A stretch of 64,000 nucleotides of DNA from a virus (taxonomy: Duplodnaviria > Caudoviricetes): the IMG/VR virus record IMGVR_UViG_3300033068_000943, positions 1 to 64,000 of that record. One strand, 5' to 3'. Positions 7,806 to 55,712 of the stretch are shown in pieces. Each line of letters starts with the position of its first letter. The stretch's first letter is position 1. The position numbers and the translations under genes were made by a program. The notes under the pieces were generated by a model. It saw only the letters and a list, made by a program, of their open reading frames with translations, made no database searches and was not told where the DNA came from.

Positions 7806-10595
7806 CCCGACCACCGGCTTGCCGATCTTGTTGCCCGCATCGGAGCGCGCTGTGTAGAGCTTCTGCATAAGACGCAGGGCGTCCACCTGTTTCATCGGAT
7901 CGGTTTCGGTGTAGAGCTTCATCAAGTCCGTGTTGCGCCGGGCATTGATCGACCGCGCTGCGGCCTCTTGCGCGAGCCGGATCAGCGGGTTGCCCCACGT
8001 TAGCGGGTTCAGCATCGACGCCTCGAATTGGGGCGCCCAGTTCAACTCGTCGATGGCTTCACGCAGCGGCGTCGTCTGCGACCCAAATTGCGATTGGTAC
8101 GTCTTGTGGAACGCCTTTTCGGCATCGATCACACGGAAGAACGCGGGCGCATCCTCACCAAGCACTTGACCAAGAATTTTTCGGGCCGCCGGCAACGAAA
8201 GCTGCTGAACAAGGTTGTGGGTTTCACCCTTGTTGAGAATGCGGTCGGAGATCGCCCGCACGAGCCCCACCTTGAACAACTCGACACGCGCCTGCGTGGC
8301 CGCCAACATGGCTTGCGCGTGCTCGACGTCGGCGAGTTGAGCCGTGGTTGGCTTTTTCTGCGCAGACTCCGCCTTGGCGACCGCGGCCAGCGCCTTTTTC
8401 AAGTCCCGCTCGGCCTTAGAGACAGCTTTTTGCGCGTCGGTGAAAAACGCCAGCCGCTCGCGCGTCCCTGAATTGAGGGACATCGCCATCTTGGACCCCG
8501 CCTCAAGCGCCTCCTTGGCGGCGGCGCCTTCCCGGTAGAGATCATTCGCCATCTTCCATTGCGGGTTGGAGACGGCCACCGCATCGGACAACTCGCGATA
8601 CAACTCGGTGAGCTTGGCGTGAACTGGCGAGCCGGGCTTGGCGTCATCGATCATCTGCTTGATGTTCTGCCGCGCGTCGATGAACTCCTGCAACGACTGC
8701 GGCGGACGCGGCGTGAACCCGGGCTTGCCGGTGCCGAACCCCAACTGCTGCGCTGCCTCCATCTCTGTGCGGGCAGTCACGCCGACATCACTTAAGTCGC
8801 GAAGCATCTGATATTTATTATTTATTGCTTCGAGCATGTCCGAATCTTCGAGGCGGACCACCTTGTTGCCGCGAATATCGTTGTCGAGCGCATCAATGAA
8901 TTCATTGATGGTCGTCCGCGAGACCACGGGGCGCCCGTTATCGTCCACCATGCCAGGGAAGAAACCCGCATGCTGTGCCCGAAGCGCCATATCATCAAGG
9001 TTGCTGCCGCTCTTGGGGCGCAACATGCCGCGCGGCGCGTGCCCCCCGAACACATTGGCGATATCACCTCCCGGATCACGCAGCCCACCGTTGGCAACAA
9101 CCCATTGCGACAGCGTTTGCGGCGACTTCATGGGGCGATTGGCGTATCGCCACATCTCCATCATCACTTCGCGCTCCGCGAGCGGAAGCTCGGCGGCTTC
9201 CGTGCGTCCGAGCGCCGAGACGCCGCGAGTCGTCGGCTCCTTGATCGTGAAATCGCTGATCGCCTTGTTGATCGCCTCCGGGACGGGGCCGCGGCGGTTG
9301 CCGAAATCGGCCTGATACTTCTGGATCACCGGCATCAGATCAAACGGCTCTTCTCGTGCCTTCGCCGCGCCGTAGCCGCGCGACGCAGCGCTTGCCATGT
9401 CATCGGAATGCCGGGCTGCCGCCGCATCAAAATCCGTCGTTCCGACAAACCGCGATAGCAGATCGTGCAGACGGCTGCCGGAGCCGACCTGACGCTCAAA
9501 CAGGGCTTCCCTGCCAATCGATGCCGGCTCGCCCTGCGTTGCTGCCGCGGCGCGCATCGCTAGGTTCGTGTTCGTGCCGCCGCCGGGACGCGCCATGGCG
9601 ACACGATCCGGAAGCATCGCCGGCCCGAGATAACGCTGCTCAAGCTCGCTCAGAAGCGTTCGAACCGCCTGCTCGCCGGGGCCGTCTCCACCGCTTGCCG
9701 CCTTCATGGCAGCGCTGATCTCGGCTGCGCTTTCGTTGTTGGCCGCGCGACGAACGACTTCCTCCACGTGCTCGCGCGTGATTGGCTGGCGCGCGCCCGT
9801 GGCGTCGCCCCAGAACCGCCGCGCGATGCCACCCTTGGCAATGTCCGTGTGCGAGGGGAATTCTTCGTAAATTTTTTCCAAAATCTGCTGCGGCGTGACG
9901 CGGTCCTGCTCCATCTTGCGGGTCGCGAGATGGAGCGCGCCTTGTCCGTGGTCGGCCGTTTCGGCCTGAGACAGTGCCCGCAACCCGCCGATCGACTGCC
10001 CGGCACGATAGAGCCCGTGCCCAACCGCTCCAAGTCCGCCGCCGAACACAGTTCCAAGCGCAGCGTCTTTCACGGCGCCAGCGCCGCGCTTCTGGATCGC
10101 GTCAGACCACGTGTCCGTGTCCTTGACGTCAGCGTGTCCGGACCCCGACAGACCTCCATAGACCGCGCCGAGCTTGGCGCCCTGACCAATTGCTTGGCCG
10201 GCGGTGACGATCTCGCCGGGCGCAAGAGCGCTTCGCACAAGACCAAGCCCGCGATTGACAAGCTGCGCTCCACGTCCAGCCGCCGCCGCCTGCGTGGCGC
10301 CCGTTGGAAGCAGCGCCGCGCCAATCATCGGCACAGCGCCGCCGATCACCTCGCCGAAAAAATGCGCCCATGGGTTGGCTTTGCGCGACGCCTCCCGGTG
10401 CTCCTTCGACACGCCGAGTTTGTCATCGTAGCCGAAACTTAACCCCTCGCTCACGCCCCGCAGAACACTTTCTCCGACGCCTGGGGCGTCGGGAGCGGTG
10501 TATTTCGCGAACGGGTCACTGCTGGCATCGCGCGGCTGAGCGCCGCCCCGCTCCATCTGCGCCGCGTACCTAGCAAACGGGTCATCGTCAGCCAT
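7716..10595 (-). CDS. Large putative DNA ejection/internal virion protein
   Basis: 959 aa, Ala/Gly-rich and helical; MADDDPFARY start; GSQTT motif near the C-terminus; position in the ejection-protein cluster. Confidence 0.65.
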   Translation of the reverse strand: MADDDPFARYAAQMERGGAQPRDASSDPFAKYTAPDAPGVGESVLRGVSEGLSFGYDDKLGVSKEHREASRKANPWAHFFGEVIGGAVPMIGAALLPTGATQAAAAGRGAQLVNRGLGLVRSALAPGEIVTAGQAIGQGAKLGAVYGGLSGSGHADVKDTDTWSDAIQKRGAGAVKDAALGTVFGGGLGAVGHGLYRAGQSIGGLRALSQAETADHGQGALHLATRKMEQDRVTPQQILEKIYEEFPSHTDIAKGGIARRFWGDATGARQPITREHVEEVVRRAANNESAAEISAAMKAASGGDGPGEQAVRTLLSELEQRYLGPAMLPDRVAMARPGGGTNTNLAMRAAAATQGEPASIGREALFERQVGSGSRLHDLLSRFVGTTDFDAAAARHSDDMASAASRGYGAAKAREEPFDLMPVIQKYQADFGNRRGPVPEAINKAISDFTIKEPTTRGVSALGRTEAAELPLAEREVMMEMWRYANRPMKSPQTLSQWVVANGGLRDPGGDIANVFGGHAPRGMLRPKSGSNLDDMALRAQHAGFFPGMVDDNGRPVVSRTTINEFIDALDNDIRGNKVVRLEDSDMLEAINNKYQMLRDLSDVGVTARTEMEAAQQLGFGTGKPGFTPRPPQSLQEFIDARQNIKQMIDDAKPGSPVHAKLTELYRELSDAVAVSNPQWKMANDLYREGAAAKEALEAGSKMAMSLNSGTRERLAFFTDAQKAVSKAERDLKKALAAVAKAESAQKKPTTAQLADVEHAQAMLAATQARVELFKVGLVRAISDRILNKGETHNLVQQLSLPAARKILGQVLGEDAPAFFRVIDAEKAFHKTYQSQFGSQTTPLREAIDELNWAPQFEASMLNPLTWGNPLIRLAQEAAARSINARRNTDLMKLYTETDPMKQVDALRLMQKLYTARSDAGNKIGKPVVGSAGVLPHATNHFATAEPPRANTTLKPYRQ

Positions 10596-49381: not shown

Positions 49382-49717
49382 TCACGCCTGCACCACTCCA
49401 AACGCCCGATAAACGGCTTGAAGTTCATCAAGTCGCCTGATGCTCCCGTTTCTCTGGGGTCGCTCAGCGTCAGCCGTGCACCGCAAATCGCCGTGGTCCC
49501 CAATCCCCGTGACCGCCCCATCACAAAACCAGATGCGAGGACGCGGCTGACGCGCGAGCCACGCCAGGGCAGGACCATCCACGACGTTACCCGAGCCGTG
49601 GCGGCCTCGAAGAGCGTACCCCTTTGCCATAAGTCTCCCGTTTCGAATTTTGGGAGCACCGGGCCGGCACAAGCGAACCATGCTCACACCAGCCTGGCAC
49701 CCGGGGAACGCCGTCAC
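49382..49717 (-). pseudogene. Possible C-terminal fragment of a vWA-like protein
   Basis: GNVVDGPALAWLARQPRPRIWFCDGAVTG resembles vWA T/D MIDAS segments; no DxSxS N-terminal part. Confidence 0.3.
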
Positions 49718-51393
49718 TCAGCCGCAACAGGCTCCGGACTCGTCGCGCGAACGGTGGCCCCGTTCAACGCGCTTGGCGACGCGATGGCACGAGAAATCAC
49801 GTCCCTGAACTCGGCGCCGGCCTCGCCGTTCTCGGCGGCTTCCGATGCATCAAGGTCATCGAGTTGATCCAACGCCTCCAGCACGACCGATGTGGATCGA
49901 GACGTAATCGCCGTGATCTGTCGCGCCACAACGTCGGCGACGGCCCGTCCCAACATCTCCTCTGGTGACACGACAGTCTTGGCCGGGTCGGCGAGCAATG
50001 CCATGTGCGCTTGCATGCCGGTCGCGGCCTCGATCAGCGCCGCTTGCGTCACCGCCGTATCGCCCGCTGATATCGCCGCGAGCTTGGAGCGCTCGACCAC
50101 CTCCCGCACCATGGCCGGGATGGAGCCGGACAGCATCGCCGCCACCTTCCCCAGCTTCTCGCCGCTCTTGATCAACGACCGGCCGTAGATACGCAGGAGT
50201 CGCTCGACGGCTTCTGCGTCCGGCGGCTCGACCGCAACGACCGCATCGAGACGGCCCGGGCGCAGCATCGCCGGGTTGATGCGCTCGATGTGGTTCGTGG
50301 TCATCACCACCATGATCTGCGCGGACTTCGACAGCACACCGTCGATTGTGTTGAGCAAATCGTTGGTGTTCTCGTCACGGTCGGTCGTGGCGCGGTCGAT
50401 GTCCTCCGCGAAGATCACGCACGGCTCATAACGGCGCGCGAATTCGAGCGTCGCCTTGAGCCCTTGCGCCCGGTCCAGACTGACGAACGTCCAGCCATGC
50501 TCGACACACTTGCGCGCGGTCATCAGCGACGTAAGCGTCTTGCCGGTGCCGTACTTGCCCGACAGCAGCACACCCCGCTTGAGCGGGATGCCGGCATCGC
50601 GACACGCCTGCGTCCGCTCGATCAGGGTCCAGATGTTGGTCTTGATCTGGACCTCGACGGCGCGCGGCAAAATCAGCTCGTCCTCCCGTGCCGCCGACAG
50701 GTCCATGAATTCCGGCGGGTTTTCGAGATCGACCGATTGCTCGCTGATCGAGCGCAGCCGGATCGCCTTGCCGCGGTAGATCGACTCATCCTTGACGATG
50801 GTGCGGGTCAACTCAGCGATCCGCTTCAACGTCTCGACGTCGCGCTTCTTGACGGTGCCGTAGATCACGAACACCGACCCACGCGGCGAATGCGTGATGG
50901 CCGTGTTGATCTGCTTCTCGACGCCGGGGATTTTGAACCCGCCCCACGGCACCTGGATCTTCTCGGTCGGGCCGGGGCCAACATCGACCGTGATCATGCG
51001 CGGCGGTTGCGCCCCCCAGAACCCCGGGACGGGCGCCGACGTGGCCCAGCCATAGATGCGCTCCAGCGCCCGCACGAACGCGACGGCGCCGTCCAAGGGG
51101 AATGCGTCAATCACCTCGTGCACGCTCATCTCGGTTTCGAGATCTGCCTTTTTGCGCGCCAGCGCGGCGATGGCGTCGTCGATAGGCATTGGGCCGGGCT
51201 CCGCCGGCAGCGTAATCTTGGTGCCAACGTGCTCGATGCCAACGTCGATGTTCTTCCACGCGACGGCGCCGTCTTTCACCGCCTTTTCCGGCAGATTCGG
51301 GTTGCCAGAGCGCAGAACCGCCTCACGGTCCTTGGCCGTCAAAGCGGATGTCAGAGCCGCCAGAATGGCGGCAGGATCGGTGGTCGCAGTCAT
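49714..51393 (-). CDS. Classical-clade AAA+ ATPase
   Basis: RGVLLSGKYGTGKT; IFAEDID; LLNTIDG; TTNH; NPAMLRPGRLD (SRH). Confidence 0.9.
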   Translation of the reverse strand: MTATTDPAAILAALTSALTAKDREAVLRSGNPNLPEKAVKDGAVAWKNIDVGIEHVGTKITLPAEPGPMPIDDAIAALARKKADLETEMSVHEVIDAFPLDGAVAFVRALERIYGWATSAPVPGFWGAQPPRMITVDVGPGPTEKIQVPWGGFKIPGVEKQINTAITHSPRGSVFVIYGTVKKRDVETLKRIAELTRTIVKDESIYRGKAIRLRSISEQSVDLENPPEFMDLSAAREDELILPRAVEVQIKTNIWTLIERTQACRDAGIPLKRGVLLSGKYGTGKTLTSLMTARKCVEHGWTFVSLDRAQGLKATLEFARRYEPCVIFAEDIDRATTDRDENTNDLLNTIDGVLSKSAQIMVVMTTNHIERINPAMLRPGRLDAVVAVEPPDAEAVERLLRIYGRSLIKSGEKLGKVAAMLSGSIPAMVREVVERSKLAAISAGDTAVTQAALIEAATGMQAHMALLADPAKTVVSPEEMLGRAVADVVARQITAITSRSTSVVLEALDQLDDLDASEAAENGEAGAEFRDVISRAIASPSALNGATVRATSPEPVAAE

Positions 51394-51452
51394 GGAATCC
51401 CCAGTCCGGTTGATCCGTGAACCATTGTCGCAACCGAGTTCCCCTCGGCCCG

Positions 51453-51476
51453 GCCGTTTGAACATATTCAAACGGC
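51453..51476. promoter_or_regulatory. Palindromic operator candidate in the divergent promoter region
   Basis: GCCGTTTGAA-CATA-TTCAAACGGC; TTGACA boxes at 51479-51484 (-) and 51531-51536 (+). Confidence 0.6.
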
Positions 51477-51567: not shown

Positions 51568-51861
51568 ATGACACAAGAGCGATCCCCTGACTTGGCGAAC
51601 TTTCTTGCGGAGATTGAGGCATTCCTGTCCGAAACGGGGATGTTCCCGTCTCATTTTGGTCGCGACGCGACCAACGATACATCCCTGGTCACGCGCCTGC
51701 GTCGCGGCAGCGACGTGACCTTAAGCACGGCGCAGCGTGTTCGCAGCTTCATGGCCGAGTACCGCAAGGCGCACGGCAAGCCAGCAAAACGGCCGCCATC
51801 GAAGGCGGCCTTGCTGTCTCACACCAAAAAAGCCCCTCCGAAGGGCGCGCGCGGCAGGTGA
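51568..51861 (+). CDS. Cro-like HTH DNA-binding protein
   Basis: LAEIEAFLSETGM..FGRDATND..LVTRLRRG..TAQRVRSFM, a family common in alphaproteobacterial phages. Confidence 0.75.
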   Translation: MTQERSPDLANFLAEIEAFLSETGMFPSHFGRDATNDTSLVTRLRRGSDVTLSTAQRVRSFMAEYRKAHGKPAKRPPSKAALLSHTKKAPPKGARGR

Positions 51862-51881: not shown

Positions 51882-52751
51882 TCACCCCGGCCAGACGACC
51901 GCGCCCGCCGTATGATAGAGGCTCTTAGCCGATCCGTCCGTTGTCTCGATGCGGCTGAATGGCCCTATCGCGGCGCTCGGCAAGGCGCCTGAATAGCTGC
52001 CGAGCTGGAACGCTTTGTTGTGGATGTGCTCGCCTGCGTACCATCGCGCGCCGCCGGACACGATCGCCACTATCAGGAATTTGCGCAGTGTACCGCTGCG
52101 ATATGGCAATGCCGTCGTCGGATCGATCAGGCTGGTGTACGACGCGACTCCATTGACCCGCACAACTCCCCACCATTGACCTTCGGTATCCGAGTCGACA
52201 CGCTGCATGACAACGGCGTTGGCTCCCGAGGCATCCCGCAGCCCGACCTCGATAACTTGTTTTGTGGTGGCGCTGGGCGCCGTCCACAGTCCGATTTTAT
52301 ACTGCGAGACCGGGACCATCCGCATCAGGGGCGCATCGACGCGCGCCGACGCACCCGGCGCCCCCGCCGCTGTCAGCCGCAGACGCGCCATGTAGGTCGG
52401 TGACGGCTCAACGACGGCCGTAGACCCGGTTCCGACCGTATCGGTTGCGAGGCTTGGCGGCATCCCGCCGACAAACGACATCTCATGGTGCCGGATCGTG
52501 ACGTGGCGGAACGACGTCACCTCGATGGGAACGTCCGGGCGATCCGCAGGCCCAAAAAACAGCGTTTTATCCGTTGTGAATGCCGCGATGTTCTCGCTTT
52601 TTTCGGAGTTCGGGTCGGCGGGCCGCGATAGCCGCCCCAGCAGAGCCCCCAGCTTGCCCAAAGAATACACCGTGTCGCCGAGCTGGACATACAGGATGCC
52701 ACCCGACGTGACGTCGGCATCATCCGACGCGCGGTTAACAGGGCTTGTCAT
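51882..52751 (-). CDS. Hypothetical protein, possible beta-sandwich C-terminus
   Basis: AAGGA SD immediately after tRNA-Met; about 289 aa. Confidence 0.55.
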   Translation of the reverse strand: MTSPVNRASDDADVTSGGILYVQLGDTVYSLGKLGALLGRLSRPADPNSEKSENIAAFTTDKTLFFGPADRPDVPIEVTSFRHVTIRHHEMSFVGGMPPSLATDTVGTGSTAVVEPSPTYMARLRLTAAGAPGASARVDAPLMRMVPVSQYKIGLWTAPSATTKQVIEVGLRDASGANAVVMQRVDSDTEGQWWGVVRVNGVASYTSLIDPTTALPYRSGTLRKFLIVAIVSGGARWYAGEHIHNKAFQLGSYSGALPSAAIGPFSRIETTDGSAKSLYHTAGAVVWPG

Positions 52752-52767
52752 TATCACCAAAATCCTT

Positions 52768-52843
52768 TGGTTGCAGAGGGCGGGCTTGAACCGCCGACCT
52801 CGTGGTTATGAGCCACGCGAGCTGACCACTGCTCCACTCTGCA
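52768..52843 (-). tRNA. tRNA-Met(CAT), initiator-like
   Basis: Cloverleaf TGCAGAG..CGTGG-CT CAT AA-CCACG..TTCAAG..CTCTGCA-A-CCA; A11:U24. Confidence 0.9.
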
Positions 52844-52923
52844 TATTCCCTATGGGGAGATTCCGATTGGCCGTCAAGCGCCGATTCGATGCGTGTTCGG
52901 CATATGCTTGACGGCCAGTCGTG

Positions 52924-53253
52924 TCACCAGAAATACTTGGTCGGCTTGTCGGGAAGCGGCCACGCCGTATCGTCCGGATCGATCTCGCCGCGCATGATGC
53001 GGCGAGCGATTGCCTTCGTGCGCGCTCGATGCGGGCGCGTGTGGAAGACCAGATCCCACCAGCGCGGATGGTTGCCCATGGGGCCGCGCACCCAATCGGG
53101 CCAGCCTCCGATCAGGAAGCGGCGCCGCGTCTCGGCCGCGCCCAATCCTCCATGAGGACTGAGTGGCACGCCGAGACGCTTCAACAGGGTTGGCGTGGCC
53201 ATGAAGGTTGTGCGGGCCGCCGTGCGGGGCCGCTTGCGCTTGTAGTGTGCCAT
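52924..53253 (-). CDS. Basic Trp-rich hypothetical protein inside the tRNA cluster
   Basis: MAHYKRKRPR..PRWWDLVFHTRPHRARTK..WP..KPTKYFW. Confidence 0.65.
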   Translation of the reverse strand: MAHYKRKRPRTAARTTFMATPTLLKRLGVPLSPHGGLGAAETRRRFLIGGWPDWVRGPMGNHPRWWDLVFHTRPHRARTKAIARRIMRGEIDPDDTAWPLPDKPTKYFW

Positions 53254-53276
53254 GAGTGAGCCTTTCGGGTTGTTGG

Positions 53277-53295
53277 CTATTTCATGAAAGCCTCC
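53277..53295 (-). promoter_or_regulatory. Minigene: GGAGG-N5-ATG AAA TAG
   Basis: Perfect SD at canonical spacing before a two-codon ORF. Confidence 0.5.
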
Positions 53296-53315
53296 ATTGG
53301 GTGCGCGATTGAGAG

Positions 53316-53389
53316 TGGCACCGGGAGCGGGAGTCGAACCCGCGCTTGCGGTTTTGGAGACCGCCGTGCTTCCGTAACACTTCCCCGAT
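53316..53389 (-). tRNA. tRNA-Trp(CCA)
   Basis: GCGGT-CT CCA AA-ACCGC anticodon arm; GGGTTCGACTCCC; G73 + CCA. Confidence 0.9.
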
Positions 53390-53399
53390 CTGCTGCTTT

Positions 53400-53475
53400 T
53401 GGTGCCCTTGGCACGGGATTGAACCTGCGACCTCCCGCTTACAAAGCGGATGCTCTACCACTGAGCTACAAGGGC
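53400..53475 (-). tRNA. tRNA-Thr(TGT)
   Basis: GCCCTTG..TAGCTCAGTGGTAGAGC..TT TGT AA..CAAGGGC-A-CCA. Confidence 0.9.
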
Positions 53476-53478
53476 AAT

Positions 53479-53556
53479 TGGTCTGCGTGGATGGATTTGA
53501 ACCACCGGCTTCCTGATCCCAAATCAGGCGCTCTGACCAAGCTGAGCTACACGCAG
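53479..53556 (-). tRNA. tRNA-Pro(TGG)
   Basis: CTGCGTG..CCTGA-TT TGG GA-TCAGG..CACGCAG-A-CCA. Confidence 0.92.
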
Positions 53557-53655
53557 AAATCTGGCGTTACCGCGTTGACGGTCGCCAGTATGTTGTTCGC
53601 GTGTGCGCGGGTCGGTTCATGACCGCTTTATGCCCGATTTGCGAAGCAGCGGCAA

Positions 53656-54123
53656 TCACCCGTTTGCCGGGCGCACCGATTCAATCGCCCCTGCGTCCCA
53701 AACACACCCCGAAGCGCAGTCCCACGACGAATACCATGGAAGCTCGAATCGAACACTGGTTTGATATGGGACGATGACGATGCCTTGGTACTCGCGCGCA
53801 ACACGGCCCCAATCTATGGCGTGAAGCGGCATCGATTTTCGCCACGGCGCGGCGTAGCGGTCGCTGAATTCGCGAAGCCCGGGCACAGACGCGATCGATA
53901 GAATGCGCGCAGCCGGGTTCAAAACGATTTGCGTCGCGCAGGCAAGCCGGTCCAGCCGGAATTCGTTGTCGCGACACCATTCCGCCCAGCCCATCGGCCC
54001 TTCGACAGACACCCACAATCCGTTCGGCTTGAACCCAAGGCGAGCGCGGCCAGCACGGTGGCCGAATTGGCTCGCATCACGCACAGCGGTCAACGGGGTA
54101 TCGGAATAATGAACCAAAAGCAT
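53656..54123 (-). CDS. Conserved phage protein (KPxGLWxS ... WDCxSGCVW family)
   Basis: LVHYS..FKPNGLWVS..WAEWC..IDWGRVAREYQGI..WDCASGCVWD. Confidence 0.7.
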   Translation of the reverse strand: MLLVHYSDTPLTAVRDASQFGHRAGRARLGFKPNGLWVSVEGPMGWAEWCRDNEFRLDRLACATQIVLNPAARILSIASVPGLREFSDRYAAPWRKSMPLHAIDWGRVAREYQGIVIVPYQTSVRFELPWYSSWDCASGCVWDAGAIESVRPANG

Positions 54124-54127
54124 GGTC

Positions 54128-54325
54128 TTACCCCGCCTCGCCAACTCTCTCGACATGGAGAGCATGCGCGATGCATTGCGCATGCGTTCGGCGCGATCCA
54201 TGCCAGCGCCCCCGAATATAAATATCAAACAACAGCACGGTCCCGTCCACGCAAGACACGGGCCGCAACTCTACGTCGACAGCCGTCTGGGCTTGACCAC
54301 CGATCGTGATATTCGCGTCCATGCC
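54128..54325 (-). CDS. Hypothetical protein
   Basis: LFDIYIRGRWHGSRRT; start uncertain. Confidence 0.5.
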   Translation of the reverse strand, partial: GMDANITIGGQAQTAVDVELRPVSCVDGTVLLFDIYIRGRWHGSRRTHAQCIAHALHVERVGEAG

Positions 54326-54429
54326 CATCCCCTTCGTGCACAATGCCGAGCGAACCGCCGGCCACCCCAGCCAATCATGAAGCGAAGGATAGGCGCCGCC
54401 GTGCCGGTTTAGCGTAGAATGAATGATTC

Positions 54430-54696
54430 TTACTCATGCGGCGCCCGACGCCCCGAGCGTCGCGCGTATTTGATCCGCTCAAGCGCCACGATAAAAAGCG
54501 TAAAGTTGCTTTCAAGCGTCGCAAGCGACCCATGCGCGGTTCCCATCCATATTGCCTCATCTGCCGACGCAGCATGCCTTGGCCGGAAGCTGCGCGCGAT
54601 CTTCGCGCTACGCATCACAGCATCCCTGGCCTCGTGAAGGCTTGCCAGCATCGCCTCAACCTCATCGTCAGAGACACGTCCATCCGCATCAGGCAT
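54430..54696 (-). CDS. Hypothetical protein coupled to the release-factor gene
   Basis: GGAGG SD inside the RF 3' end; helical 88 aa. Confidence 0.55.
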   Translation of the reverse strand: MPDADGRVSDDEVEAMLASLHEARDAVMRSAKIARSFRPRHAASADEAIWMGTAHGSLATLESNFTLFIVALERIKYARRSGRRAPHE

Positions 54697-55369
54697 ACAA
54701 GTCCTCCAGATTCCCGGCCAGCACGTCGGCGAGCCGCGCCTTGGCGCCAGTCTTGTGGTCGGTCACGATCTCGTCTCGCACCCGGTACGTGCGGGTCTTA
54801 TCGCCGCGCATGCCTGAGCCCACCTGCCCCTTGCGATCCGATGCCGTGGCGAGGGCCGTCTGCTGCGCAACATGCGCCGCCACGCGGCCCTCAAGCGTCT
54901 CTCGCGCGATCTGGCGGTTGCGATGCTGCGACTTCGTGGCCGCCTTGGCCTCGATCCCTGTTGGCTTGTGTCGCATCACCACACACGATTCGGTCTTGTT
55001 TCGATGCTGGCCACCCGGCCCGCTGTCCATTGTCGTTCGCACCTCGATGTCTGCATCCCGCAGCCGGTACGCCGATCGCTCGCGCAACGCGAACACCGCG
55101 ACAGTGACGGTCGATGTGTGCACGCGCCCGGAGCGTTCCGTTGGGGGCACCCGTTGCCAGCGATGGCCGCCGCTCTCATTCAGCAGGCGCTTGGCGGCAA
55201 GATCATCCCCCTCGATGATCAGGACCAGTCAACTGCGGCCTTCGTCCTCGACATCGACGACCAATCCGTGTCGACGCGCATAGGCAAGATAGATAGCCGC
55301 CTGATCTCGAACCAAGAGCTTGGCGTCGTCGCCGCCCTCGCCGGGCCGGATTTCAATTGCGATTTTCAT
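54689..55369 (-). CDS. RF1-like peptide chain release factor lacking domain 1, with in-frame TGA at codon 47 (55229-55231)
   Basis: MKIAIEIRPGEGGDDAK..EGRS*LVLIIEG..ESGGHRWQRVPPTERSGRVHTS..SGPGGQHRNKTES..SQHRNR..GSGMRGDKTRTY..VTDH, all in one frame. Confidence 0.85.
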
Positions 55370-55557
55370 CGAACAGTCCTTTCCATGCGGGCCAGCTCGC
55401 GCATCACGGCATCCCGGACGACATCGGATTTGCTTACGAACTCGGGACGCGCGAGTGACGCCCTGAGTGCCCGGATACGCTCAATGGCACGAGCGAACTC
55501 GTCGTCCGACCGCATCATGAACGTCTTTGTGAGAAGCTTAGGTTTTGTGTTTGCCAT
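55366..55557 (-). CDS. Ribbon-helix-helix (CopG/Arc-like) regulator
   Basis: TFMMRSDDEFARAIERIR..SKSDVVRDAV; ATGA coupling to the RF start. Confidence 0.65.
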   Translation of the reverse strand: MANTKPKLLTKTFMMRSDDEFARAIERIRALRASLARPEFVSKSDVVRDAVMRELARMERTVR

Positions 55558-55566
55558 GGCCACAGC

Positions 55567-55595
55567 TATGTACTCCACGTCATGACGTCTTGCAA
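55567..55595 (-). promoter_or_regulatory. Sigma70-like promoter with palindrome in the spacer
   Basis: TTGCAA-N17-TACATA; spacer contains the perfect palindrome ACGTCATGACGT (55577-55588). Confidence 0.55.
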
Positions 55596-55649
55596 GGGGC
55601 GCGAAGCCTTTTCCGCACTCCCGACTTTGCGGTGAATTATTTCTTCATG

Positions 55650-55683
55650 GCGTATTGACGTGATGCACGCGGCCGACTATATT
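55650..55683 (+). promoter_or_regulatory. Early sigma70-like promoter, copy 1
   Basis: TTGACG-N17-TATATT; 19/20 nt shared with 57826-57845. Confidence 0.7.
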
Positions 55684-55712
55684 CCAATCACACGACACGG
55701 CAGGAGGAACCA

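Follow-up and report, generated by a model that had tools for sequence, protein, structure and literature searches.

Regulation of a release factor (RF) gene by a stop codon placed early within its own coding sequence is known from prfB, where an in-frame UGA and a +1 frameshift make synthesis dependent on the failure of termination by RF2; devices of this type respond to the level of RF2 (PMC5009743). Regulation of an RF gene by same-frame read-through of its own early stop codon was at one time predicted and, as of 2016, was unknown in bacteria, and the only viral case named is an RF gene of a giant virus, which needs both read-through and frameshifting (Atkins et al. 2016, PMC5009743). Phage RF1 and RF2 were listed by Al-Shayeb et al. 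with no mention of a gate, phage RFs were not treated by Burroughs and Aravind (2019), and no paper describing a UGA-gated phage RF was found. The present analysis concerns a region of a phage genome (positions 52768-55595, minus strand) that contains an RF gene interrupted by an in-frame UGA and, downstream of it, a Met-Lys-UAG mini-gene that precedes a small gene, orf109. The region is part of the window, the name used here for the whole stretch of DNA that was analysed, i.e. the first 64 kb of the 93,335-bp IMG/VR virus record IMGVR_UViG_3300033068_000943 (CheckV completeness estimate 92%, GC content ~62%). The probable interpretation is that a UGA-gated RF gene and the leader formed by the mini-gene lie, independently of each other, within an island of tRNA genes.

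The bar mini-genes of phage lambda consist of a strong Shine-Dalgarno (SD) sequence, an AUG, one codon and a stop codon. The axe-txe operon has a two-codon mini-open reading frame (mini-ORF), mg2, whose effect is exerted in cis and varies with the distance between the cistrons (Kedzierska & Potrykus 2021, PMC8708949). A phage RF1 is known from the Jade phages, where it belongs to a code-change module together with tRNA-Sup(UCA) and a tryptophanyl-tRNA synthetase (TrpRS); the module keeps to the standard code, unlike the remainder of the genome, which is recoded (Borges et al., bioRxiv 2021.08.26.457843).

The RF gene of the window is made up as follows.

54689-55369, minus strand: the whole RF gene, 226 codons with one in-frame TGA.
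55232-55369, minus strand: codons 1-46, starting where RF domain 2 starts (match to PCRF profile positions 101-141, E=1.5e-6).
55229-55231, minus strand: the in-frame TGA, codon 47, in the context AGT TGA CTG.
54689-55228, minus strand: codons 48-226 and the stop codon (PCRF profile positions 157-194; RF-1, E=4e-20), holding GGHRWQRVPPTE and the GGQ motif.

A scan of viral contigs found relatives of this RF on 345 of them. The DNA was read for the best 80 and for six Logan contigs of the closest proteins, and removal of duplicates left 76 distinct RF contexts. The gene is interrupted within its first 50 codons in nearly all relatives read at the DNA level. The interruption is an in-frame TGA in 65 of the 76 contexts, a TAG in two and a TAA in none; four relatives (L009, L063, L060 and L072) have CTT TGA after GGAGG-like purines, with the downstream part in the +1 frame, and five are ungated. 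Skipping of one base after CTT yields a complete RF in all four frameshift relatives. Two alignment columns, at about 36 and about 47, host the gate, and both the read-through and the frameshift device occur at either of them. The closest clade (L082-L087, 72-77% identity) has its TGA at codon 47 and shares the TGA CTG context with the window. The base 3' of the gate stop is A (37 cases), G (18) or C (12) and never T; a U at this +4 position is reported as the context that lowers read-through (PMC5289835). Two RF genes (L019 and L033) carry two in-frame TGAs, eight codons apart. The two TAG gates are those of L006 and L071, and for an RF1-type factor a gate of this kind would be true self-feedback.

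Purifying selection is seen on either side of the TGA, with nonsynonymous differences (pN) of ~0.2 against synonymous differences (pS) of 0.53-0.78 (0.53-0.77 for codons 1-46) in comparisons with the relatives. TGA is a genuine stop codon in this phage: it ends 29 of 48 ORFs with a high GC content at third codon positions (GC3), many neighbouring genes abut, and the RF gene holds the only in-frame TGA found in the phage genome. Use of code 4 across the genome was rejected on the same count, the next gene abutting the TGA. The first in-frame start after the TGA of the window is a Val codon inside QRVPPT, and no restart codon 3' of the TGA is conserved among the relatives. The conservation, the pN and pS values, the use of TGA as a stop and the lack of a conserved structure after it argue for a programmed gate rather than for damage, an altered code or selenocysteine. 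On this comparative evidence the UGA is a conserved and selected recoding site, predicted to work as a programmed gate, and the UGA-interrupted RF1-like gene reported in the initial annotation is borne out: its TGA at codon 47 is real and is kept in the relatives.

The phage factor is, to judge from its profile and structure matches, an RF1-type class-I release factor without domain 1. Pfam PCRF matches flank the TGA on either side and are followed by the RF-1 domain; the PxT position is occupied by PPT, within GGHRWQRVPPTE, and SGPGGQ is intact. The NCBIfam scores are 185-195 bits for prfA, 107 for prfB, 63.6 for PrfH and 30.8 for ArfB, all of them under the cut-offs (400 and 423 for prfA, 166.65 for PrfH TIGR03072 and 100 for ArfB NF006718). 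The cut-offs are not reached because domain 1 is missing: the match to the prfA profile begins at position 106-114, which leaves out ~105-113 N-terminal residues. The protein therefore has the PCRF and RF-1 domains, the PxT position and the GGQ motif of the family and lacks the domain 1 and the equivalog-level score of a full-length prfA product. Its best matches in the PDB are RF1 structures (E=2e-40, against 1e-19 for RF2); they start at residue 87 of the RF1 of T. maritima or residue 113 of that of E. coli and place QRVPPTE opposite QRVPVTE. Two other identities were considered and rejected, PrfH of the PrfH-RtcB repair pair, on its score (63.6 bits against 166.65) and because no RtcB is encoded in the genome, and ArfB, on its score (30.8 bits against 100) and the presence of the decoding domains 2 and 4. 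Among GenBank phages, the only relatives of the RF have less than 42% identity and carry no useful annotation. From what is known of the family, the factor should read UAA and UAG and not UGA, so that the gate would not be a self-feedback device.

The likeness to prfB lies in the early in-frame UGA of an RF gene and in a synthesis that would depend on the failure of RF2 to terminate, and the prfB cassette itself, an SD-like sequence followed by CUU UGA, is present in the four frameshift relatives. The gene of the window differs from prfB in continuing in the same frame after AGT TGA CTG, which points to read-through rather than frameshifting, and in encoding an RF1-type product with no self-feedback. 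The position of the gate is also different: it lies in domain 2, whereas the prfB site is codon 26, within the domain 1 that the phage protein lacks. The giant-virus gene mentioned in PMC5009743 (Jeudy et al. 2012) is likewise a viral termination-factor gene that needs recoding at a stop codon; it encodes a eukaryote-type factor in an amoeba virus, whereas the genes considered here, with relatives on 345 contigs, encode a bacterial RF1-type factor in tailed phages. The module of the Jade phages is similar in that a phage RF1 lies near Trp-decoding tRNA genes, but the phage of the window uses TGA as a stop, and the anticodon of its tRNA is CCA.

The second element, the leader of orf109, is located between the tRNA genes and the orf109 start.

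53250-53295, minus strand: leader with a mini upstream ORF (mini-uORF), comprising the first SD sequence (SD1, GGAGG, 53291-53295), the mini-gene ATG AAA TAG (53277-53285) and the second SD sequence (SD2, AAAGG, 53261-53265).
52924-53253, minus strand: orf109, encoding a small basic protein of a family whose N-terminus resembles MAHYKRKRPR.

From SD1 to the end of the mini-gene the leader of the window reads GGAGG-N5-ATG AAA TAG (53277-53295), and orf109 starts 23 nt later. The two start regions can form a helix, in which UCAUGA (53282-53287) pairs with UCAUGG (53250-53255). The arrangement GGAGG-ATG-NNN-stop is unique to this site in the 93-kb genome, and an SD-preceded mini-ORF 20-45 nt upstream is found at only 2 of the 339 ORF starts of the genome. 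Both the mini-gene and the conserved in-frame TGA of the RF gene go far beyond what chance would give. Thirteen leaders of orf109 homologues were read at the DNA level (those of the window, L082, L088-L092, L095, L097 and L099-L102, with 36-77% protein identity), and all 13 have the same design of an SD sequence, an ATG, zero to three sense codons and a stop codon. As to spacing, the main ATG lies 21-28 nt and SD2 10-15 nt after the stop codon, and the two AUGs are 30-36 nt apart. The sense codons vary (AAA, AAT, TTG, ACA, CAA, TCA, ACG and others), and L091 has a bare ATG TAG. A helix of 6-13 contiguous bp between the two start regions is found in at least 11 of the 13 homologues; its sequence differs between members, with compensatory changes such as GCCAUGACAAUG/CAUUGUCAUGGC and CGCCAUGACGUAA/UUACGUCAUGGCG. 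The stop codon of the mini-gene is TAG in seven lineages, TAA in four and TGA in one (12 lineages), and TAG accounts for 19% of the stops of this phage. No RGPP or RAPP arrest motif was found in the read-through frame of the leader; this frame is not conserved, and AUG1 and AUG2 stand to each other in all three phases. The conserved design and the start-start pairing suggest strongly that the mini-gene has been conserved as a cis element, in a position to control orf109, and they uphold the earlier description of a Met-Lys-UAG mini-gene upstream of the next gene.

The orf109 family comprises 329 clusters at 50% identity (E<=1e-3). MAHYKRKRPR is invariant in the first seven homologues although synonymous sites vary; distant members begin with MANFKRRRPR or MAHYKRGKCR, and the C-terminus of the family ends in YYW or YFW. 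No Pfam or PHROG family matches orf109, an Atlas search gave only unnamed viral clusters, and the AlphaFold2 model is poor, with a predicted local distance difference test score (pLDDT) of 54. On contig L091 (L091:1-3529), a member of the family with its mini-uORF adjoins Tn7-like genes (TnsA-like, a Mu-type transposase and TniB); the leader unit is therefore not confined to phages.

Like mg2 and the lambda bar mini-genes, the mini-gene is preceded by an SD sequence, has one to a few codons and lies just upstream of a gene. It differs from them in that its start is paired to the main start, with covariation among the homologues and a spacing of one ribosome footprint, and in that the gated gene belongs to a family of phages and mobile elements. 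The architecture of a regulatory mini-ORF leader of the mg2 type is present in all 13 homologues, and action in cis is predicted. The mini-gene start region would pair with the orf109 start region, with the SD sequence of orf109 in the loop. A ribosome initiating on the mini-gene would have to melt this helix; it would end 10-15 nt before SD2, one footprint upstream of AUG2, and would expose the orf109 start in cis, the output being set by its dwell time at the stop codon.

Four tRNA genes accompany the two elements.

53479-53556, minus strand: tRNA-Pro(tgg), found by ARAGORN and Rfam.
53400-53475, minus strand: tRNA-Thr(tgt), found by ARAGORN and Rfam.
53316-53389, minus strand: tRNA-Trp(cca), found by ARAGORN; its Rfam score of 49.7 bits is the lowest of the four tRNAs.
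52768-52843, minus strand: tRNA-Met(cat), which combines features of initiator and elongator tRNAs.

The RF gene has its place in phage tRNA arrays. tRNA genes lie within 5 kb of it at 56 of 77 non-redundant loci, and all 448 of these tRNAs are on the RF strand. A tRNA-Trp gene is found at nine RF loci; at six of the nine it is no more than 1.5 kb from the RF gene, as against 95 of the 439 other tRNAs (Fisher p = 0.005, the lineages not being independent). The association of the RF gene with tRNA-Trp that had been suggested earlier is suggestive: the closest clade includes four lineages with tRNA-Trp(CCA) within 1.4 kb of the RF gene (the window, L085/L086, L087 and L002), and tRNA-Trp occurs at only nine loci in the family as a whole. 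In the window the tRNA-Trp gene is co-oriented with the RF gene and 1.3 kb downstream of it, and in L085/L086 the Pro-Thr-Trp trio is directly upstream of the RF gene. Several other genes were observed near relatives of the RF: phage transfer-messenger RNA (tmRNA) genes a few kb away (L052:8361-8760 and L061:1211-1572) and, near the RF gene and tRNA cluster of L085, an IS605 OrfB/TnpB (Cas12f-like) gene at 9085-10299 and a large ORF at 8-2614 with a faint LAGLIDADG match.

The tRNA-Trp of the window has the pair U11:A24, the A24 of which had been noted in the initial annotation. Together with the altered A8:U14 core, this pair lies in the hinge region of the mutations of the Hirsh suppressor tRNA-Trp (G24A) and of A9C. 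The A24 is indeed present, and the tRNA-Trp of L085 (L085:4736-4809) has both A24 and the A8/U14 swap; but A24 is not kept beside the RF gene, the RF-adjacent tRNA-Trp of L087 and L002 having C11:G24, and natural bacterial tRNA-Trp often carries A24 or C9 (PMC13092985). Where nearly all tRNAs have U8:A14, the tRNA-Trp of the window has A8 and U14, and its acceptor stem contains two G-U pairs.

The full-length RF would be made only if the ribosome decodes the UGA at codon 47 rather than terminating there. The most likely route would be near-cognate decoding by Trp-tRNA(CCA), which would compete with host RF2 at the weak UGA-C context. The gate would then tie the amount of the RF1-like factor to poor termination at UGA, i.e. 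to the balance between RF2 and tRNA-Trp, and in the frameshift relatives the RF2-sensing device of prfB, at the same columns, would serve the same purpose. A role of the phage's own tRNA-Trp as a booster of read-through is plausible. Insertion of Trp at codon 47 is expected from the mechanism and not by homology. The presence of W at the gate column of ungated homologues was considered as support for it and withdrawn, since, at least for the database homologue P0008 (L094:301-981), the W arises from gene calling with TGA=W, and only in this way does the protein match its DNA. Calling of genes with code 4 on short contigs can in this manner hide the gate in protein databases. At column 36, ungated relatives have F or L, and the RF1 of T. 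maritima has W.

Alternatively, the UGA may be a fixed attenuator that senses nothing and holds a possibly harmful RF without domain 1 at a few percent of what its mRNA could otherwise yield. UGA is the leakiest stop codon, no stimulatory RNA structure accompanies it, and the product should not read UGA, hence there would be no feedback loop. However, a weak ribosome-binding site would suffice for such a purpose, and the gate is kept or re-invented at two columns, also as the SD-CUU-UGA frameshift cassette of the prfB type; furthermore, TAA is absent among the gates and no gate stop is followed by T. A fixed attenuator is therefore considered unlikely, and a gate that responds to termination at UGA is preferred.

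Several points weigh against the preferred reading of the gate and of the leader. There is no conserved RNA structure after the UGA (the covariation term is zero), so that read-through would rest on local context alone, and no UCA-anticodon or suppressor tRNA was found near any RF locus examined. In relatives that are truly ungated, the residue at column 47 is F, I, L, V or Q. The proposed coupling also gives no explanation of why a phage should link an RF1-type factor to an insufficiency of RF2. As to the leader, it is the SD regions and not the AUGs that pair in L097, and a 7-bp helix is possible in L091, where the lowest-energy fold is another structure. The effect of the leader on orf109 may be activation or occlusion.

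The remaining features of the region, which are all on the minus strand, are the following.

55567-55595, minus strand: promoter-like site in a divergent intergenic region, read directly as TTGCAA (55590-55595), a 17-nt spacer and TACATA (55567-55572).
55366-55557, minus strand (63 aa, ATG at 55557), or to 55578 (70 aa, GTG): ribbon-helix-helix (RHH)-like ORF, ending in an ATGA overlap with the start of the RF gene.
54430-54696, minus strand: orf88, which at its start overlaps the last bases of the RF gene; it matches no known family.
53656-54228, minus strand: orf190, a member of phrog_8582.
51882-52760, minus strand: orf292, followed by two intrinsic-terminator-like hairpins.
51791-51846, minus strand: these two terminator-like hairpins, 3' of orf292, a possible end of the co-oriented unit.

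The genome encodes an SU10-type portal, contains a terminase-like gene and has the majority of its genes on the minus strand. The segment 52768-55595 consists of co-oriented tRNA genes and small genes. It lies between a divergent intergenic region (55579-55712) and the terminator-like hairpins, and the order on the minus strand is the RHH-like ORF, the RF gene, orf88, orf190, the tRNA-Pro/Thr/Trp genes, the mini-gene, orf109, the tRNA-Met gene and orf292. Each feature that had been listed initially was found in its place. The region is likely to be a phage 'translation island' with two translational control elements that are independent of each other. Downstream of the island, both in the window (49714-51471, minus strand) and in L082 (L082:3663-5315), there is an AAA/nSTAND3-type ATPase gene.

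Three features were confirmed as sequences and only in part as what they had been taken for. The site TTGCAA-N17-TACATA, described as a promoter with a palindromic spacer, shares 7 of its 12 bases with the sigma-70 consensus, and its -10 hexamer lacks the T of position 6; a consensus promoter scan did not return it, and a better promoter-like site, TTGACG-17-TATATT, lies on the plus strand at 55655-55683. The palindrome of 12 nt in the spacer, ACGTCATGACGT at 55577-55588, is not beyond chance, being expected in ~3% of intergenic stretches of this length. The small ORF upstream of the RF gene is present and may have a ribbon-helix-helix fold; the assignment derives from Pfam scores below threshold (PSK_trans_fac, E=0.009, 17.3 bits with a cut-off of 28.3; CB_ParB_C, E=0.09, 13.3 bits with a cut-off of 27). 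The tRNA-Met, called initiator-like, has metY as its closest E. coli gene (79% identity), and A11:U24 is common to both; it has a U-A pair at 1:72, not the C1xA72 mismatch, and with U:A at 29:41 its anticodon stem retains two of the three initiator G:C pairs (29-31:39-41).

The initial annotation had joined these parts into a single circuit, in which tRNA-Trp with A24 would supply the read-through that makes the RF, the RF would act on the UAG of the mini-gene that gates orf109, the RHH-like protein and the initiator-like tRNA would take part, and the whole would counter host defences; the idea was to be given up if the elements did not co-occur in related genomes. They do not. A tblastn search with six neighbouring ORFs (among them the RHH-like ORF, orf88, orf190, orf109 and orf292) against 80 viral RF loci found none within 5 kb. 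The RHH-like ORF is not beside the RF gene in any relative examined, orf88 and tRNA-Met are not conserved partners of the RF, and a homologue of orf190 (43% identity) is directly upstream of the RF gene in L082-L084 only. Conversely, no gene with an RF-1 domain was found in four genomes that have the mini-gene unit (G001, G002, G047 and G050), two of which are 100% complete, one 91% and one 79%. In a further genome, G049, the sole RF-1 match (L103, G049:C1:13114-13359) is a small GGQ-only protein that does not belong to this RF family; two TGAs are reported inside the match, and this 72-kb phage also has the mini-gene unit. The expected partners RtcB and Pth fared no better: this genome lacks RtcB, Pth and PTH2, and no RtcB was found in the 43 RF-bearing records searched; one RtcB gene lies 4.4 kb from the RF gene in L087. 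These distributions indicate that the RF gate and the mini-uORF leader are independent modules and not a single circuit.

What speaks for a single circuit is that all parts face the same way, flanked by a divergent promoter region and by terminators, that an RF1-type factor should read UAG, that the mini-gene stops are mostly UAG (7 of 12 lineages), and that one type of relative, that of L082, alone shares orf190, the RF gene and the mini-gene with orf109 in one neighbourhood with the window. The mini-gene of L082, however, ends in TAA, not TAG, and the synteny is explained by common descent, since the downstream AAA/nSTAND3 gene is also common to both. With the two units occurring independently, A24 not conserved beside the RF gene, the other members not conserved partners and no support found for a link to defence, the single circuit is rather improbable. 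A looser connection, which has a slender chance of being correct, would be a cascade in the few genomes where both modules are present: poor termination at UGA, triggered by low RF2 or high phage tRNA-Trp, would yield the RF1-type factor, which would shorten the dwell at UAG on the mini-gene and so affect translation of the MAHYKRKRPR protein, occupancy of the mini-gene holding the AUG1/AUG2 helix open. UAG is read only by RF1, and the sole hint of such a cascade is the excess of UAG among the mini-gene stops. If it were true, the island would contain a relay that senses stop codons and registers the condition of the host's termination machinery.

The mini-gene is built like the lambda bar mini-genes and might, as a toxic mini-gene, sequester one tRNA as peptidyl-tRNA rather than act as a cis regulator of orf109. 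This is very unlikely, because its sense codon varies between homologues and is missing in L091, and conservation applies to where the mini-gene stands with respect to the orf109 start and to its pairing with that start.

That the RF gene is a pseudogene, an assembly error, a gene of a code-4 phage, a selenocysteine gene or a gene split into two polypeptides can hardly be entertained: the TGA is one base from TGG and gene callers give products of 46 aa and 163-179 aa, but the TGA is kept among relatives with saturated synonymous sites and with purifying selection on either side, TGA closes most bona fide genes of the phage, no conserved hairpin follows the UGA to act as a selenocysteine insertion sequence (SECIS), and no restart codon after the TGA is conserved.

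The UGA-gated RF and the mini-uORF leader are thus best regarded as separate devices with separate implications. Hundreds of phages have a predicted same-frame read-through design in an RF gene, with the twist that the gated factor is of the RF1 type and the gate is a codon of RF2, and read-through and frameshifting appear to be interchangeable within one natural RF family. Public gene calls, which either split this RF gene or silently render its TGA as Trp, should be used with caution. The mini-uORF that pairs with the next start goes with a gene family that comprises 329 clusters and occurs in phages and mobile elements, and a 'ribosome as helix opener' acting at a distance of one footprint may be a general way of coupling a gene to the kinetics of initiation or termination.

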